This document shows, piece after piece, positions 1 through 9,422 of a stretch of DNA of 12,590 nucleotides. The stretch lies in contig JAVZYR010000017.1 of the NCBI GenBank assembly GCA_038999435.1, positions 1 through 12,590 on the forward strand, given 5' to 3'. Source of the DNA: Candidatus Aenigmatarchaeota archaeon. Its GTDB lineage: Archaea; Aenigmatarchaeota; Aenigmatarchaeia; QMZP01. The translations under genes were made by a program, and so were the position numbers. Below the pieces are notes generated by a model. It made no database searches and was not told where the DNA came from. It was given only the letters and a program-made list of their open reading frames with translations. Position 1 is the stretch's first letter; each line of letters opens with the position of its first letter.

Positions 1-3000
1 CTGTTGCAGTATCACCAGGCTTTACACCACATGATACTTGTGCATATTCTGCTGTCTCTTTATTTTTTTGCGATATTTCATCATACTGTTGCTTTGTGCA
101 ATTGCACTTATCACTCTTATCCTTATTCTCTGGATAGTATATTATTATATCAGCCCATGGGGTTAGTAGGTTTTTAACAGCATCTTGAGGGCCCTGGCCA
201 GGCGAGGATAGACAACCAACAGCAAATGAATGAGTTACGATAGATCCAGCCTCTGCACCAGGAGAACCTAATGGTGGTACAGAAAAATCTACAGTGCTTG
301 CTGTTGATATTATGCTAAGATCAGAGTCTTTGTGCAGTATAACAGGGTTCGCACAAGCTTCTGGAGGGACTCTTGCCTCCACTCTTATCTGTGTATAGAT
401 ACATGTTCCTGTGAAATTTACTGAAGCACATGTCGCGTATGGTGGTGTCACAACTGCGCCCTGTGGATGTATCCAATCTCTTACCAAAATCCTCATGCTT
501 ACTCCCATGCCTCCCATACCACCTGTCATATTGCCAAAGAGATTTACCATGCCTGTACCAAATTTGCCAAACGTGCTTGCCAAATCCGCTCCTGACTTGG
601 CTGCTGCACCCATCAAATTCTGTATGTTGCCAAAAACTGTATTCATGTTAGACATGCCATCCCTTATACATATTATCATTTTCTCAAAGCAGCCCTGTTC
701 ATTGCCCTTACACATACCTGTGTCCATCATATGTTGATGCATTGCCAAACACATATCCATCTGTATTCTCGCCATATGCAACTGTATAATCTGAAGTTCT
801 GCCATGCGTATGTTTATCATGAATTCGCAATACTTTCCTGGCATACTCATAAGTAGTTGACCAAGCTCTGCTGCCGTGCCTACGAAAAACTTTGCCATTT
901 TAATATTACCTTTTAGTGCAGCATATCCTCCAATACCCAATCCACTTAATGTCATAATAATTGAAAACCAAAGTGCAGCTTCCATCATTTTTATGCATTG
1001 GTCAATCAGGTCCTCCATCTTATCTGCTATGTCCATTGCCTTGTCAAGCTCTCTCTGCAACTGTTCAATCGAATCATTTATGATGTCACTTATTGTCCTC
1101 ACTGATTGATGTGTGACAATATCAGGCAAGCGGGCACTGAGATTCATAATCCGCACTACATTTCCATCTCTATAGCTGAGATAAATCATCATAGAATTTG
1201 GCTTGTATGTGTATGTCCAGCCCTGTGAGCATTCGGGTATTGTATTTAATCTTATCGTGCAGTTTACACTGCCTGTTATCTGGTCAAGTAGCTCACAACC
1301 TGCAAACTCGGCATTGCTGCCATTTATTGTGAATGCATACGAATTTAGTTGAAATTCACTTGGTGGGTTGGCAATGTGTGCACGCACATTCACATCCTGT
1401 GTAATCTCACACGAATCAAATCTAACTGTTGTTGTTGGGCTATCAATCACAAGCGACATATTGCTCAAATCCCTGCACTCACCTGTGCTCATAGGATCAT
1501 TCGGGTTCCAATCACAGTACTGGCCCTCAGGACAGCCCTCATCAAGACACGTTGCCTGTATTGTTATCGGGTCTATCGGTACAGAAAACTGTTTGCTCAG
1601 CATACTATTGCCATTTGCAAATCCTATCTTTATCTCAAGGCTAACAGGATTTAGCACATAATAGCTTGAACCTGTAAACTTCTTTATTCCTGGCATACCC
1701 TCAACACAGCCCTGTCCAGCAGGTATTGTTACAATGCATCTGTCAGTTTGGCCTGTGACAGGCATGCAATTAACAGGCCACCCCATACCTGCACCTGCTA
1801 TTGCAAATATCACCTCCTCAACAGTATGGTTTGATGGGCCCGAAACCCTGATTGTAATGTTCAAGTTATGGTCAATGCCACATCTCTTCAGCACAAACCC
1901 AGGACTTACCGAGACAATGCTGATATTTATATCAGATAGTGCCTTGCATTGCTCGGTTGAATATGGGTCACAATATTGGCCTTGTCCTGTACATGGACAG
2001 TCAAGACAGCATGTTGCAGGGCTCTCGCCAGTTGCTACATCGCAGTATCCATTGCCACAACTAGCAGCAGGTATTGTGACATCAGGCAGCCTTGCAGACA
2101 GTTCTTGTGTTATACTCTGCGCACCATCAAGATATGTGATGGTGAAGTTAAGGTTATTATTTCTTATAATGTACATCTTGTTTGGATTGTATGGCTCAAT
2201 CTTAAATGGCATCTGGCAGAAATATTTTCCTCCATCAAGCGGTTGACAGTCAAGGGATTGACTTGCACCCTCCATGTAGCCTGTATCCCAGGTTATATTT
2301 CCAAGCGAGCATACAGCAGATTCGAGTGTCATGCGTCCAGGCGCATTTAGCACGGTTGCTGTTATGTTTAGGAAATTGTCAATGTTTGGATTGTATCTAT
2401 AAAATGATGTAAAGGATGTGATGGTAAGCGAAATTGCTGCCTTTGGCTTGCACTCCTTTGCAACAGAATCACAATAAAGCCCTTCAGGACATGCACAGTC
2501 ATAGCCTATCTGTATGCTATTGAAGCTTGTATTCAAAGTCTGGCTAATCGAATTCCTGCCGTTCATGTAAATGATTGTCAGCTCAAGCTCGCCAGGGCCT
2601 GTATTATAGAAATCACGACCACATTTTGGAAATCCTTCTATACCCACATCGCAATTATAACTTCCTGCAACAGACAGGCTGCATGTGATAGGCCTTCTTA
2701 TGCCACCAAGTATGAGTGAGCCTGTTGCTGTCTGCTGAAGGCTAAGTGGTGCATTTGGTATGCTCACCCTCAATGGCACTGTTGGTGCTGCGCACTGTGT
2801 AACAGCAGTTGTTGGTGGTGAGACCTGAATCTGTGATGGTGTATCCTTGCACTGTGCAGGGCCTGTTTGTGGTGCATCGCAGTACTGTGCACCAATACAT
2901 CCACAGTCAAGACAGCATGTTGCAGGGCTCTCGCCAAGGTCAGATTCACAGAAGCCATTACCGCATGTAAATTCAGGATTTCTGTTCAGCGTTATTGGAT

Positions 3001-5631: not shown

Positions 5632-6327
5632 CTATTTTTCTGCCCTCTTTGTGATAGCAAGCGTGACAGATATGCCACTTGTGCCTGAAACAGGTATGAA
5701 TTGATGCGCCACTGTCACAGGCAACCTGCAACCTGTCCTGCTCTTTCCTATGTAGCATTCATACCATTTAAGAAGCCTATCGCTACTGCTGACGTTCACA
5801 TATATAAAATCTTGTATACCTGCAAATCCAACAGGCCTTGCTGCAAGAAAATATTCATAGCCAGGCTTTAACCCTGCATATGTCTGCAGAGATTCATTGA
5901 GCCTTTTGACCGCAAGCACATCACATGAGAACTGTGGTGATGCAGAGCGACATACATAACCTGCTTTTGTCCAATAACAGCCGATAAGATCTGAGACATA
6001 CCTACAGCTTTTGTCCATCCAACATTCAGGGCATTCAGGGCCTGCGCCACCTGACCTGATGATGGCTGTCAGCATCTCATGGGCATAAAGCTCCTCATAT
6101 TCTGTTATGGTTATTGTCTGGGCAAAATAGAGAAGGAATATTGCCATGCCAATGAATATCATGACAGTGATAATCATTAGAATCAATGTTGTCTGACCTC
6201 TTACATACATATCTGTAGTTTTCTTTTCGCAAGCGTTTTCTTTTTCTAAAAGAAAAGGCTTTTGATAGGGAATTGTAGTTTTCTTTTCGCAAGCGTTTTC
6301 TTTTTCTAAAAGAAAAGGCTTAGCCAT
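5632..6327 (-). CDS. Cys-rich type IV pilin-like protein; start either 6327 (long repeat-containing leader) or 6210 (MYVRG|Q)
   Basis: RG|QTTLILMIITVMIFIGMAIFLLYFA class III signal and a Cys-rich globular part. ATG 6327 has GAGGTGA 6 nt upstream; ATG 6210 gives a conventional short leader but has no RBS. Confidence 0.8.
   Translation of the reverse strand: MAKPFLLEKENACEKKTTIPYQKPFLLEKENACEKKTTDMYVRGQTTLILMIITVMIFIGMAIFLLYFAQTITITEYEELYAHEMLTAIIRSGGAGPECPECWMDKSCRYVSDLIGCYWTKAGYVCRSASPQFSCDVLAVKRLNESLQTYAGLKPGYEYFLAARPVGFAGIQDFIYVNVSSSDRLLKWYECYIGKSRTGCRLPVTVAHQFIPVSGTSGISVTLAITKRAEK
6214..6321. repeat. Tandem pair of a 60-bp-period palindromic/triplex-motif repeat (locus A)
   Basis: tgtagttttcttttcgcaagcgttttctttttctaaaagaaaaggctt (48 bp) is exact at 6214-6261 and 6274-6321, separated by a 12-bp linker. 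It contains the hairpin ttttctttt-tct-aaaagaaaa. Confidence 0.95.
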
Positions 6328-6817
6328 ACCATCTCACCTCTATCGTGCCCAGCTCTATAATTGGATGTATGCCATATGTTGTGACCTGTCCTGCAGGCCA
6401 GTATATACCTGCTGGAAAAACATAACCGGTATAGTTGCCTTGTCTTTGACATATAATCCATTGACTGCAACTTGGCCAATTCTGTTCTGTGCAGTTTACA
6501 GGGTCTTTGCCTATGACTGATATAACAAGAGACCATCCTTTACCAAATATCTTTTCAAGTTCAGCACATTGTCCTTGAAGGGCAAGAAGTTTTCCTGTAT
6601 CGTATATACTCGGCTCCTTTACAAAGATTGGAGATGTTGAGACAAGCTTTAGTGTATTTAAGATATGCTGAGATTCTGTCTTTGCCTTTTCGAGCCTCAT
6701 CTGGCTTGCCTGCCATCCTGCGAGAAATAGTATAACAACAACGAGCACAACCATTATGAGGAATGTCATGAATATGTATTCCATCAACTCTGCCTGTCCG
6801 AGCATTTTCTTGCTCAT
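6320..6817 (-). CDS. Type IV pilin-like protein (165 aa)
   Basis: MSKKMLG|QAELMEYIFMTFLIMVVLVVVILFLAGW: basic leader, G|Q and a hydrophobic helix. Four Cys. ATGA overlap with the upstream gene and GAGGTGA at 6822-6828. Confidence 0.85.
   Translation of the reverse strand: MSKKMLGQAELMEYIFMTFLIMVVLVVVILFLAGWQASQMRLEKAKTESQHILNTLKLVSTSPIFVKEPSIYDTGKLLALQGQCAELEKIFGKGWSLVISVIGKDPVNCTEQNWPSCSQWIICQRQGNYTGYVFPAGIYWPAGQVTTYGIHPIIELGTIEVRWYG
6334..6340 (-). promoter_or_regulatory. Shine-Dalgarno GAGGTGA before ATG 6327
   Basis: The minus strand reads GAGGTGA-gatggt-ATG; the geometry (8-nt gene overlap) is the same as at the rpa3/pcn junction. Confidence 0.65.
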
Positions 6818-7845
6818 TCCCTCACCTCACAACCAAGCATAAGCAGGTTTTCATATATGCTTTTTGAATGTTCCAAAAGAGCAAAAGTGGGATATGTTGA
6901 TATGTAAGTTAGATTTGATTTAAAATTGTTTAACTCTCTAACACATTTTGCAACATCAGCAGTGCTGCTTATCCTTCCTTGACTGATAAGGTTTTGGATG
7001 TATGTAGAAATCCTTTCTGCCCTCCTTGCTGATGAGTTTGCAGCAATGCTTACATGGAGATTGAAAAAGTATTGTTTGGCATCATAAAGCCTTGGTGAAA
7101 GAGGGCCCCAGAAATCATCATGGTTTGCACCAAGCGTAATGGCAAGAATGTCAAGTCCATCAGCCCATGATATGCTTTGATTTGAGATGTATGCAATGCC
7201 CTGTGGATGTATGCAAAGGCCATACTGCTGATATGACTGGTCACAGTTATTTGAAATTGTTATCAGTGCCTGATTTTTGCCTGGCTTCAAAAGGCATTTG
7301 TTTGCATTTGCCTTTATCGAGAACCATGAAAGGCTTTTTGGTTCATCGATATCTGCACCATCACAGTTTGCATATTTTGTTGTATTGCCTGGCAAGTATG
7401 GCTCAATCTTTCTGAACAAATCGCCTGATGTTTGGTCATTGATTATGAAAAGAAAATCCTTAGGCACACCAACCACAAACCAGAATTCGTACCAGCCCCA
7501 ATCTATGCCCTTTCTCTCAAGCCAGAGCTCCTGTCCTGGTCTTATGAGCGCAGGCACAGGCATCTCCCAATCTCCAAGTTCTGTTGTAATTACAGGTCTG
7601 TTATCAGGCTTAAGCGTTATGACTGTAAAATTCAACCCTGTCTTTTTAAACTCATCAAATGTCTGTGGGTCATTGTAGGTATAGACATGCTGAAGGGTTT
7701 GGCTAAAGCTGCGCAGGGCCTGTGCCTGCATAGATGCGCTCTGTATACCGATGTATGTTGTGAGGTATGATGTGATGAAGTAGAGGATAAAGAATGATAT
7801 GATGAGCCCAAATATGATTCTAAAAAGCTGAAAGATGGATATCAT
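6814..7845 (-). CDS. N-terminally membrane-anchored, pilin-cluster-associated protein (343 aa)
   Basis: Long ORF co-oriented and overlapping with pilin genes. Single N-terminal hydrophobic helix (IIFGLIISFFILYFITSYL) followed by an amphipathic helix; paired Cys; no visible cleavage motif. Confidence 0.8.
   Translation of the reverse strand: MISIFQLFRIIFGLIISFFILYFITSYLTTYIGIQSASMQAQALRSFSQTLQHVYTYNDPQTFDEFKKTGLNFTVITLKPDNRPVITTELGDWEMPVPALIRPGQELWLERKGIDWGWYEFWFVVGVPKDFLFIINDQTSGDLFRKIEPYLPGNTTKYANCDGADIDEPKSLSWFSIKANANKCLLKPGKNQALITISNNCDQSYQQYGLCIHPQGIAYISNQSISWADGLDILAITLGANHDDFWGPLSPRLYDAKQYFFNLHVSIAANSSARRAERISTYIQNLISQGRISSTADVAKCVRELNNFKSNLTYISTYPTFALLEHSKSIYENLLMLGCEVRE
6822..6828 (-). 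promoter_or_regulatory. Shine-Dalgarno GAGGTGA before ATG 6817
   Basis: The minus strand reads GAGGTGA-ggga-ATG inside the end of the upstream CDS. Confidence 0.65.
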
Positions 7846-7869
7846 TATTAATATTGTTTTGTTAATTAT

Positions 7870-8367
7870 TCAAACTGCTATCAGTACATACTGTCCTGCA
7901 TTTACGAGCCATGCCTGTCTGCTTCCTGTTGTACAGAAATTATTTTGCTCTGGCCTAAGATATGCAATTTTATATCCCTCCCAGTCTCCTGGTCCAAGAT
8001 ATATCCACACATTCGAGCGATAATATTCGCTGTACTGGTCCTGTGTCAGGTTTATCATCAAGGGCTCTGGAGGCCAGTTCTTCCATGTTGCAGCACCCCA
8101 GCTTGATGCATTTGGAAAATCAGGGTCAATGAAGCAGAGCTTTGCACCTGCTGGTAATACAATCTGTATCTGCTTTTGACTTCCTTTTGATTGTTGAAAA
8201 ACCCATCCAACCTCTTTTTCTATATTCTTTACCTCATTGTACACCTGAGCCCGCTTACCAAACCCAAGTATGTCTGATATGGGACCTATTCCAAAGGCGA
8301 GTATTGAACCTATGAGTATCACTGCAATCAGGAATGCAAAAACCATCTCAGCTGATATCTGCGGCAT
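7870..8367 (-). CDS. Pilin-like protein (165 aa) with atypical minimal leader
   Basis: MP-QISAEMVFAFLIAVILIGSILAFG has a pilin-like Q+1...E+5 and hydrophobic helix but no K/R-G leader. TAATG overlap with the upstream gene. Confidence 0.78.
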   Translation of the reverse strand: MPQISAEMVFAFLIAVILIGSILAFGIGPISDILGFGKRAQVYNEVKNIEKEVGWVFQQSKGSQKQIQIVLPAGAKLCFIDPDFPNASSWGAATWKNWPPEPLMINLTQDQYSEYYRSNVWIYLGPGDWEGYKIAYLRPEQNNFCTTGSRQAWLVNAGQYVLIAV

Positions 8368-8960
8368 TATTTAACTTCTAATTGAAAGTATCGTACAGTA
8401 CCGCCCCACATGTTATCAGCACCTGGTTTGCATGTCTCCCATGTGAGTGCTTGGCCAACTATTTTATCATAACATGCTGTTATCCTAAGTGTATAGATTC
8501 CTGGTATAGCACCACTTGGAAGGTTTATATAGATTGGAATGGGGTTGTCTATATTTTTAAACATGGGTGCAATAGGTGTTGGTACTTTAACCCAATCTAT
8601 CCAGCTTTGAACAGTAGCACTAGTCACCCCTGTTGGTTGTTGAACGACATCAACATTTATAACAAAATTATGTTGTTTACGGTCTTCTGCATCATTTAAA
8701 ATTCCAACACCAATAAATAACTTTTTGCCTGAGGTTGTAGTATAGCTTTTTGGTGATATATCGAAATTTCCGGATGCTCCGGTTTGAAATGACTCTGTTA
8801 AATCTGAGAGGGCAGTTTGTCGCATTTGTCCTGTGAGATCCTCTATTCCTGTAAACATCCCTCGCAACCAGCTCAGAACAAGGCTCAGCATTACAACTGC
8901 AATCACTATCACAACAATAAAACCAATAGACATCTCTACTGCACCACGTAATTGTGCCAT
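8367..8960 (-). CDS. Type IV pilin-like protein (197 aa), candidate major pilin
   Basis: MAQLRG|AVEMSIGFIVVIVIAVVMLSLVLSWL: RG|A class III motif, beta-rich C-terminal domain with one Cys pair, and its own TATA box upstream. Confidence 0.85.
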   Translation of the reverse strand: MAQLRGAVEMSIGFIVVIVIAVVMLSLVLSWLRGMFTGIEDLTGQMRQTALSDLTESFQTGASGNFDISPKSYTTTSGKKLFIGVGILNDAEDRKQHNFVINVDVVQQPTGVTSATVQSWIDWVKVPTPIAPMFKNIDNPIPIYINLPSGAIPGIYTLRITACYDKIVGQALTWETCKPGADNMWGGTVRYFQLEVK

Positions 8961-8979
8961 AATAATAATTTTCTGAAGT

Positions 8980-8987
8980 TATTTAAA
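8980..8987 (-). promoter_or_regulatory. Putative TATA box for the 197-aa pilin gene
   Basis: The minus strand has TTTAAATA 20-27 nt upstream of ATG 8960, preceded by cgaaaaattgata (purine-rich, BRE-like). Confidence 0.6.
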
Positions 8988-8993
8988 TATCAA

Positions 8994-9094
8994 TTTTTCG
9001 TTAACGTTTTTCTTTTCTAAAGAAAAAGGTTATGATAAATCAATTGTAGTTTCTTTTTCGTTAACGTTTTTCTTTTCTAAAGAAAAAGGTTATG
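8994..9094. repeat. Tandem pair of the same 60-bp-period repeat family (locus B)
   Basis: tttttcgttaacgtttttcttttctaaagaaaaaggttatg (41 bp) is exact at 8994-9034 and 9054-9094. The second copy is preceded by aattgtagtttc as in locus A. Hairpin tttttcttt-tct-aaagaaaaa. Confidence 0.95.
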
Positions 9095-9422
9095 GCCAGC
9101 TCCACTTAGCTGTGCTTGTTGCCCTTGTGCTGAAAAGCGTGATGTTGACATTTAAATTCGAACAATCTCCATCCTGTCGAATTTGAAAATACATGCTTGG
9201 TATTTCCTGTCTGGCAAGCCATGCACCAAGTTGTGCCAATTTTTTGTCATTGCATGCAGAAAATGTCTGATTGTAGAGCCTCTTGATCTGAAGCATATAG
9301 TAGCCCTCATCCCTTGTAAATGGCTGAGAAAGGTCGAGGGTAGATTGTGTGATGTATGTATAGATTGAAAATATGAAACCGCATATCAGAATCATTGTGA
9401 GCAGAAACATCTGACCTTTCAT
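9090..9422 (-). CDS. Small type IV pilin-like protein (110 aa)
   Basis: MKG|QMFLLTMILICGFIFSIYTYI class III signal; ATGA overlap with the aspS stop. Confidence 0.83.
   Translation of the reverse strand: MKGQMFLLTMILICGFIFSIYTYITQSTLDLSQPFTRDEGYYMLQIKRLYNQTFSACNDKKLAQLGAWLARQEIPSMYFQIRQDGDCSNLNVNITLFSTRATSTAKWSWP

Follow-up and report, generated by a model that had tools for sequence, protein, structure and literature searches.

A short, apparently non-coding repeat occurs at two intergenic loci, A and B, of the 12,590-nt stretch of archaeal DNA analysed here (hereafter the window), which is the entire contig C17 of assembly G000 (549 kb, 30 contigs, 86% complete). We read it, with moderate confidence, as a selfish archaeal element that was inserted twice and whose sense strand carries the pattern of a class II intrastrand triplex, i.e., a pyrimidine tract (Y), a purine tract pairing with it (R2) and a second purine tract (R3) that mirrors the first; this pattern would serve the element's own life cycle, and would do so in DNA more probably than in RNA. 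Throughout, the sense strand is the minus strand of the window, from which the window genes are read; all of the genes neighbouring the repeat lie on it.

Anatomy of the repeat unit

On the sense strand each unit follows the formula N4-C-Y-loop-R2-C-N4'-RCG-R3, in which Y pairs with R2, N4 pairs with N4', and R3 is an in-register mirror of R2. The hairpin is thus built of a 4-bp foot (N4:N4', AAGC/GCTT in locus A and TAAC/GTTA in locus B), a C.C mismatch and a pyrimidine:purine stem of 6–10 bp, and between R2 and R3 lies a conserved 8-nt turn, CGYTNRCG, whose tight YTNR core with its closing Y:R pair is of a type known from the CUUG RNA tetraloop and from the two-residue CTTG and TTTA DNA loops. 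Each locus holds two tandem units at a spacing of 60 nt, and the two loci are 74% identical across 95 nt. An earlier note on this DNA, written for the plus strand, had given the tracts of locus A as ttttctttt (6279–6287), cgcaagcg (6288–6295), ttttctttt (6296–6304), tct (6305–6307) and aaaagaaaa (6308–6316), and those of locus B as tttcttttt (9050–9058), cgttaacg (9059–9066), tttttcttt (9067–9075), tct (9076–9078) and aaagaaaaa (9079–9087); we find every one of them at these positions. The same note took the connector cgcaagcg/cgttaacg for a mini-hairpin, which is right in that its positions 3 and 6 co-vary (C..G or T..A), but this part of the unit has a second role, as on the sense strand its positions 2–5 form base pairs with the four nucleotides that precede the pyrimidine arm. 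The units and their tracts, all on the minus strand and in sense order, are as follows.

6275–6322: locus A unit 1, containing the tracts of the next three lines
6322–6320, TAA stop; 6321–6318, N4 AAGC; 6317, C (5' part)
6316–6308, Y TTTTCTTTT; 6307–6305, loop AGA; 6304–6296, R2 AAAAGAAAA (stem)
6295–6288, turn CGCTTGCG; 6287–6279, R3 AAAAGAAAA; 6278–6275, CTAC (3' part)
6215–6261: locus A unit 2, its 47-nt core identical with unit 1; its R3 (6227–6219) ends 8 nt short of the ATG of the downstream gene (6210–6208, MYVRGQ...)
9046–9092: locus B unit 1, mirror 9/9, direct repeat 7/9, with the tracts of the next three lines
9092–9089, N4 TAAC, with a TAA stop (9092–9090) inside it; 9088, C (5' part)
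9087–9079, Y TTTTTCTTT; 9078–9076, loop AGA; 9075–9067, R2 AAAGAAAAA (stem)
9066–9059, turn CGTTAACG; 9058–9050, R3 AAAAAGAAA; 9049–9046, CTAC (3' part)
8994–9032: locus B unit 2, hairpin and turn as in unit 1, R3 shortened to AAAAA (8998–8994), mirror 6/9; it directly abuts a TATA-like box

We folded both loci with ViennaRNA, in whose model only the Watson-Crick hairpin is represented and triplex energies lie outside. As RNA, locus B forms the long hairpin (foot, C.C mismatch and stem) locally in both units (−20.9 kcal/mol, z −2.18), and in the optimum for locus A the arms pair across the two identical units (−28.2 kcal/mol, z −2.57). The plus strand of locus A, when treated as DNA, folds into local hairpins, and one of these is the complete long hairpin (z −5.8).

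Covariation of foot, stem and third tract

That the tracts co-vary in register is shown by further copies, of many variants and from many genomes. When 11 nine-bp variants (10 distinct rows) are aligned without gaps, the Y:R2 and N4:N4' pairings are kept in 130/130 cells, with five pairs changed on both sides, compared to 53–69% in slid controls. The parallel complement of Y and R3, position k against position k, is kept in 39/40 cells, with three of the four tested pairs covarying (slid controls 50–75%), and the sole miss is the shortened unit 2 of locus B. For the foot, seven Watson-Crick N4/N4' combinations occur among 80 copies that had been selected for a paired foot; in a set of 102 distinct copies defined by hairpin and mirror only, n1:N5 is a Watson-Crick pair in 98, and all four pair types are used.

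We assembled a further set blind to R3, for which only the foot and a perfect purine stem 6 bp or more in length were required. It comprised 67 distinct copies, drawn from 53 loci or contigs; four of these loci had been retrieved with a pattern demanding five purines after the turn, and 51 exact-motif loci, in which R3 was fixed by the search pattern, were omitted. R3 mirrors the whole stem strand R2 in 51 of the 67 copies, and in another seven with one mismatch, whereas 12 copies contain a complete direct repeat when every offset between 0 and 10 is allowed. Among the 56 copies with an asymmetric R2, 42 have the full mirror and 3 a full direct repeat; as these three are full mirrors too, R3 as a direct repeat of R2 was rejected. 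The mirror is in register for G at positions 2, 4, 5, 6, 1+5, 1+6, 1+5+8 and 6+8. For 15 of the 21 distinct R2 sequences the commonest R3 is the full mirror (permutation mean 2.09; 0/20,000 permutations reach 15), and the length of R3 follows that of the stem (rho 0.43), with a 9-nt purine run on 11 of 15 nine-bp stems. A competing hairpin with antiparallel pairing of Y and R3 was also rejected, as it is satisfied in 84% of cells against 81.7% after shuffling, i.e., nothing beyond composition. The three-way covariation that the earlier note had seen in two variants, and for which it had called for a search of the genome and its relatives, therefore recurs across many variants and genomes, with R3 tracking R2.

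The strand that folds

The mirror relation is identical for both strands and cannot discriminate between them; the imperfect pairs of the foot and turn can. Although our search patterns permitted G.T and A.C alike, the non-Watson-Crick pairs comprise 17 G.T (11 of them at positions 3:6 of the turn), a single A.C and 8 other mismatches, when written for the sense strand, and therefore it is the gene-sense strand that folds. Every G000 copy within a tRNA or rRNA gene is also sense to its host; near protein genes the bias is weaker, a sense ORF ending 5' of 15/55 copies and an antisense ORF ending 3' of 7/55. On these counts the folding strand is the gene-sense one and the predicted structure a class II one (pyrimidine, purine, reverse-Hoogsteen purine). 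The fold that the earlier note had drawn, with the plus strand in class IV order, is disfavoured by the same 17 to 1 count, and the caveat it had attached, that the mRNA strand reads Y-R-R and that a structure of the purine motif or at the DNA level is no less probable, has become the better reading.

Insertion at both loci

A congeneric genome, G001, has the orthologous operon with empty sites at both loci, which establishes the insertion polymorphism. At the empty locus A it reads ..TGGTATGAATAGGGGACAGACAAC.., and the two genes overlap there (ATGAATAG); G000 has the two units, from GCTAAGCC to CAGATATGTATG, between TGGTATG and TAAGAGGTCAG. At locus B, G001 reads ..GAATGG/ATATTTAAATAGG.., and G000 has AGCTGGCCATAACC...AAAAATTG at the slash. 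Both loci thus appear to be recent insertions, each bringing in a tandem pair of units of this small, non-coding repeat. At locus A the junctions share a short motif:

6325–6329, minus strand: GTATG at the 5' junction of insertion A, with (G)TATG again at the 3' junction, 6208–6204

This may be a short target duplication, a weak case given that the genomes are ~27% diverged, and the TGG/TTG at locus B is likewise no more than suggestive.

At both loci the element donates the TAA stop and the last one to three codons of the upstream protein, so that from G001 to G000 the protein ends change from WYE* to WYG* and from WIFK* to WSWP*; the stop codon of ORF 6320–6817 lies in the hairpin foot at locus A, and that of ORF 9090–9422 in N4 at locus B. 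We considered whether the element is itself coding, as ORF 5632–6327 runs open through both locus A units, each exactly 20 codons long, and keeps the frame of the downstream gene (6208–6327), and rejected this because the G001 orthologue starts at MNRGQTT without such an extension. An mRNA intron was likewise rejected for the window copies, since neither visual inspection nor the RNA folds revealed a bulge-helix-bulge.

Unit number varies within the population as well. Among four DNA runs from a single hot-spring study, a contig of one public run joins 6213 to 6274, exactly one 60-nt unit fewer, and so represents a one-unit locus A. Reads of the other samples have zero substitutions within the covered parts of the element, to which we give little weight as contigs break in the repeats. 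For a mobilizing enzyme, a search of G000 (86% complete) with the Y1 transposase family PF01797 gave 0 matches; controls matched in 6 of 14 known genomes.

Distribution in the genome, the phylum and other archaea

The earlier note had taken the sequence for a dispersed repeat of a DPANN-type archaeon, and copies in the genome and phylum bear this out. The 19-nt core occurs 22 times in G000 (~30 copies in a looser scan), nearly always immediately downstream of GGTTCGAAT, which places it within a tRNA gene's T-loop. Around 20 tRNA genes of G000 are broken after GGTTCGAAT by long modular inserts (contigs C2, C3, C7, C8, C11, C14, C16, C18, C26 and C29), and because the element interrupts these genes standard tRNA finders see few of them, Aragorn reporting only 10 tRNA genes in the 549-kb assembly. 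The 16S and 23S rRNA genes are interrupted by the module too:

G000 contig C8, ~1900–2100 and 330–530, minus strand: rRNA inserts of the same modules, in 16S between GGTAGCGGT and AATGCGTT and in 23S between GAACTGAAAC and ATCTTAGTA

In the phylum as sampled, a pattern that included five purines after the turn matched 62 of 371 genomes (f8 24/44, f1 8/46, f6 6/14, f2 4/23 and f10 2/4, by family), with close to zero matches of the reversed-pattern control in the matching genomes. A looser count of 116/371, from a pattern without the third tract, was dropped, as its reversed-pattern control was nonzero and chance hits were included. The exact variant CTTTCTT-N3-5-AAGAAAG-CGYTNRCG-GAAAGAA was found at 51 loci in named metagenome-assembled genomes (MAGs), which span nine or more groups of archaea (Nanoarchaeota, Altiarchaeota, Aenigmatarchaeota, Micrarchaeota, Parvarchaeota, Methanophagales, Methanosarcinales, Thermoplasmata, Hadarchaeum and others), and this exact 7-7-7 motif had 0 matches in a viral contig collection. 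Rfam models at gathering thresholds, run on the window and five further loci, matched only 16S and 23S rRNA and nothing on the element.

Of 80 copies in the relatives, 13 begin exactly on the in-frame TAA (TAAGCC or TAACC) that closes an ORF 50 or more codons long, and 18 lie in T-loops; the remainder are mostly in D-loops, anticodon loops, 0–4 nt after tRNA 3' ends, in rRNA genes and in AT-rich spacers. A genome of the same family has tandem units with a similar linker (CACAATTCCATA there, CTACAATTCCCTATCAA in the window) that are followed by other modules also present in the tRNA introns of G000; the elements build mosaic arrays with other shared modules.

Several observations on these copies stand beside the above. 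Spacer copies in MAGs of the non-DPANN Methanophagales and Methanosarcinales (L118, L132, L142 and L161) have long oligo-T runs a few bases downstream, as at archaeal terminators. Short D-loop and 23S introns (L097 and L098 in G020, L005 in G085) consist of one module and a 3' tract (AAAAGGTT, GAAAAGGGTT, AAGAAAGGGTT) that pairs with the first 8–11 bases of the module, closing the intron. A further intron module, ..GCTCTGAATGATGTCTGAC.., recurs in contigs C2, C8 and C18 of G000 (e.g., C8:6900–7420, minus strand) and is C/D-box-like (TGATG/CTGA); it may be a candidate intron-borne guide RNA.

A proposed triple helix in a probably selfish element, and alternatives to it

Because the two antiparallel purine tracts are identical position by position, as A.A-T and G.G-C triads would have them, we take a three-stranded fold to be what the repeat encodes. 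On argument alone, such a mirror would be expected neither from duplication or inversion nor from a protein with two-fold symmetry. In the proposed fold the second purine tract would run back along the stem and match its purine strand, A opposite A and G opposite G, and the three-stranded form would serve the copying or insertion of the element, or the processing of its single-stranded form. Turnover, patchy spread and indifference to host context point to a selfish element. For the pilin-like genes of the window we would propose no specific role beyond the donated stop codons and a stable hairpin between cistrons. DNA would be the likelier nucleic acid, and we favour it because purine-motif triplexes are reported to exclude RNA (as cited in PMC4666352) and because the natural RNA triple helices with solved structures belong to the pyrimidine motif (PMC7583470). 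For the TMECO motif of E. coli, class II intrastrand triplexes of DNA do form in vitro (PMC4666352).

Several points weigh against this reading. The full mirror is missing in 16 of the 67 R3-blind copies, in several intron copies of G000 a different module joins straight after the turn, and the covariation statistics overstate the case and are not true probabilities because the copies are related. The tracts are A-rich, with one to three G per 6–10 triads, and A.A-T triads are the weak kind; the habitat sampled, moreover, is a hot spring. In several introns the turn pairs with a complement downstream and R3 is exactly the loop enclosed, e.g., GCTTGC-GGAAAGAA-GCAAGC, and therefore cannot lie along the stem in that fold. 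Simple D-loop and 23S introns carry a fourth tract at their 3' end that pairs with the pyrimidine arm, which therefore has competing partners; such alternative pairings suggest different folds in different states. No transposase candidate came from the PF01797 search of G000, and for TMECO the study that reports the in vitro triplexes found nothing to support a stable one in vivo (PMC4666352).

The strongest alternative, though an unlikely one, is a fold of the sense RNA with a function for the host, i.e., a nuclease-resistant or processing-defining hairpin with a docked purine tract, which would form a purine-type RNA triple helix or a minor-groove triple at the 3' ends of cistrons, tRNAs and exons and inside excised introns. 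The predominance of G.T over A.C is the usual signature of RNA pairing, and the copies that start on in-frame TAA codons or 0–4 nt behind tRNAs, like the 15/55 with a sense ORF ending on their 5' side against 7/55 with an antisense ORF ending on their 3' side, sit where such a role would be exercised; in Methanophagales and Methanosarcinales the oligo-T after R3 would place R3 at the transcript 3' end. Against it, G001 does without the element at both loci and unit number varies within the population. RNA strands, moreover, reportedly do not enter purine-motif triplexes (Semerad and Maher 1994, cited in PMC4666352), and the solved natural RNA triple helices that PMC7583470 lists are all U.A-U/C+.G-C. 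Quite unlikely, in our estimate, is the boldest form of an RNA fold, in which a conserved purine-motif triple helix (A.A-U/G.G-C) caps or marks cut ends and the repeat seeds archaeal introns. If it were true, a kind of helix held not to form with RNA strands would be in use across Archaea at tRNA, intron RNA and cistron ends, and the same repeat would be the seed of the non-canonical tRNA and rRNA introns of archaea.

We regard it as improbable that there is no triple helix at all and that the repeat is a hairpin whose purine tail or loop stays single-stranded and is recognised by a protein or pairs alternately with the pyrimidine arm, the mirror register then stemming from another constraint or from shared ancestry of low-complexity tracts. 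The closed hairpin loops that hold R3 in several intron copies fit this proposal; R3 still forms 7/9 pairs with Y, wobbles included, and the tracts are of low complexity, with related copies inflating the counts. Against it stand the 42 to 3 excess of full mirrors over direct repeats among the asymmetric variants and the mirroring of G at all of the positions listed above, and a two-fold symmetric protein would, by argument only, require a direct and not a mirror repeat.

Improbable to much the same degree is the plus-strand order Y1-turn-Y2-tct-R, a pyrimidine-motif class IV triplex (T.A-T/C+.G-C) in single-stranded DNA or antisense RNA. T.A-T-rich pyrimidine-motif triplexes are robust and form in RNA too (PMC4666352 and PMC7583470, in the parts available), the mirror relation is equally valid on both strands, and the DNA fold of the plus strand does give the hairpin (z −5.8). 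On that strand, however, the 17 G.T pairs become A.C mismatches, and one pair changes the other way; the G000 copies are also sense to every tRNA or rRNA host, and the antisense is therefore the template strand, which is not transcribed as such. Very improbable is duplex-level H-DNA, extruded under supercoiling from the R2/R3 homopurine mirror and stalling polymerases at gene ends, as R2-turn-R3 is a textbook mirror repeat but its 6–10 bp arms are short for supercoil-driven H-DNA, and the mirror alone would suffice for it, leaving the same-strand pyrimidine arm, the N4:N4' foot and the G.T bias unexplained. That H-DNA stalls DNA and RNA polymerases is stated in the available text of PMC11667243.

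Neighbouring genes

Beside the repeats the window contains the following.

5632–9422, minus strand: co-directional run of pilin-like genes, the N-terminus of each short and charged and followed by a (K/R)G-Q/A motif and a hydrophobic stretch; no Pfam match
8979–8990, minus strand: TATA-like box ATATTTAAATAA, ~20 nt upstream of the ATG (8960–8958) of the next pilin-like gene

A Pfam scan of 12 ORFs left 8 without a match. At least eight co-directional ORFs on the minus strand between 2 and 9422, including ones of 1253 and 614 aa, have no Pfam match. The N-termini read MVKGQ, MYVRGQ, MAQLRGA and MKGQ, followed by the hydrophobic stretch, and judged by eye the cluster looks like one of class III (type IV pilin-like) signal-peptide proteins; the run is a possible DPANN locus for a pilus or for adhesion. 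The TATA-like box is present at the empty site of G001 and is thus ancestral, its role as a promoter being a prediction. Within the 1253-aa ORF a 41-nt direct repeat (1990–2030 and 2896–2936, 95% identical, 906 nt apart) suggests an internal domain duplication.

Comparison with known systems

In the window R2 and R3 make a homopurine.homopyrimidine mirror repeat of the kind from which H-DNA forms, with arms of 9 nt on either side of an 8-bp spacer; the comparisons below are with natural repeats and RNAs.

The earlier note had likened the element to RNA triple helices of the ENE/MALAT1 type. There is a resemblance in that an A-rich tract lies downstream of a hairpin, on the 3' side of the transcript, and could tuck into it, but the ENE clamps one A-rich strand between two U-rich strands with U.A-U triples (PMC7583470). 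Because the transcribed strand here has one pyrimidine and two purine tracts, the element is not an ENE-type clamp, and that part of the note does not stand.

Repetitive extragenic palindromes (REP) and their mosaic arrays (BIME), with their RAYT transposases, and the hairpin ends of IS200/IS605 elements offer a parallel in habit. They are short, structured extragenic repeats that occur singly, in tandem or as mosaics between cistrons and at gene ends, and their presence or absence varies among close relatives, as that of the window repeat does. To our knowledge REP elements are without a mirror purine tract and do not dwell in introns, and the PF01797 enzyme of the RAYT kind has no match in G000.

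Non-canonical bulge-helix-bulge (BHB) introns occur in DPANN archaea; the 59/60 T-loop introns of ARMAN-2, for instance, are cut by the epsilon2 splicing endonuclease (PMC3239211, PMC3488258). A BHB intron lies within a gene, and helices of exon and intron, with two 3-nt bulges 4 bp apart, join its two ends. Paralogues of our module form the 5' part of T-, D- and anticodon-loop introns and of rRNA inserts in G000 and its relatives, whereas the window copies lie between protein genes, from a stop codon to the next start or promoter, and neither complementary flanks nor exon helices were seen around them by eye or in the RNA folds; in the window the element is not a BHB intron. As far as our literature search reached, the module does not figure in the published account of these introns. 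That search, which reached few subscription journals, returned no published description of the repeat family.

Selection appears to hold three strands of this short and abundant element in register; comparative evidence of that kind for a triple helix is rare, and loci A and B make a natural swap pair for a comparison of oligonucleotides. As the module starts unusual DPANN tRNA and rRNA introns, lands on stop codons and sits behind tRNAs, it offers a handle on intron gain. For annotation it matters that the element supplies stop codons and alters the last one to three residues of upstream proteins, and so bears on where genes end.

The closest counterpart is the bacterial PIT/BoxC/TMECO repeat (Hoyne and Maher 2000–2002 as cited in, and Holder et al. 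2015, PMC4666352), which has the same strand order as this family and is likewise short, dispersed, mostly intergenic and tied to local insertion/deletion variability. The class II definition there is a single strand with a 5' pyrimidine tract, a purine tract and a reverse-Hoogsteen purine tract to the 3' end (PMC4666352). All four window units have this order (Y-loop-R2-turn-R3), and for an antiparallel third tract, giving A.A-T, T.A-T or G.G-C triads, on a stem of at least 6–7 nt with at most one mismatch both units of locus A and unit 1 of locus B score 9/9; unit 2 of locus B fails at 6/9. The first loop is 3 nt in the window and 3–13 nt in the family; the second is the 8-nt turn, which lies within the 0–10 nt of Hoyne et al. 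and beyond the 1–6 nt of ITxF (PMC4666352). According to the same source, the E. coli motif was found to act neither as a promoter nor as a terminator. In sequence the two families differ: TMECO is G/C-rich (CCCTCNCCC.. GGGNGAGGG.. GGGNGAGGG) and ours A/T-rich with one to three G, and by inspection the TMECO/BoxC consensus as available to us, CCCTCNCCC-N3-6-GGGNGAGGG-N3-GGGNGAGGG, has no likeness to the window tracts TTTTCTTTT and AAAAGAAAA. Compared with TMECO as described in the available text, only this family has the CGYTNRCG second loop whose first half also pairs with a 4-nt upstream foot, and it is archaeal, resides in introns of tRNA and rRNA genes and begins on stop codons; its third tract is backed by covariation, of which none is seen for TMECO in the accessible parts of PMC4666352. 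Judged by the order of its tracts, the nearest known kind is therefore the bacterial class II intrastrand triplex repeat, in the same structural class and a different sequence family, and to that kind this family adds a paired foot, a conserved turn, a habitat in archaeal introns, starts on stop codons and covariation of the third tract.

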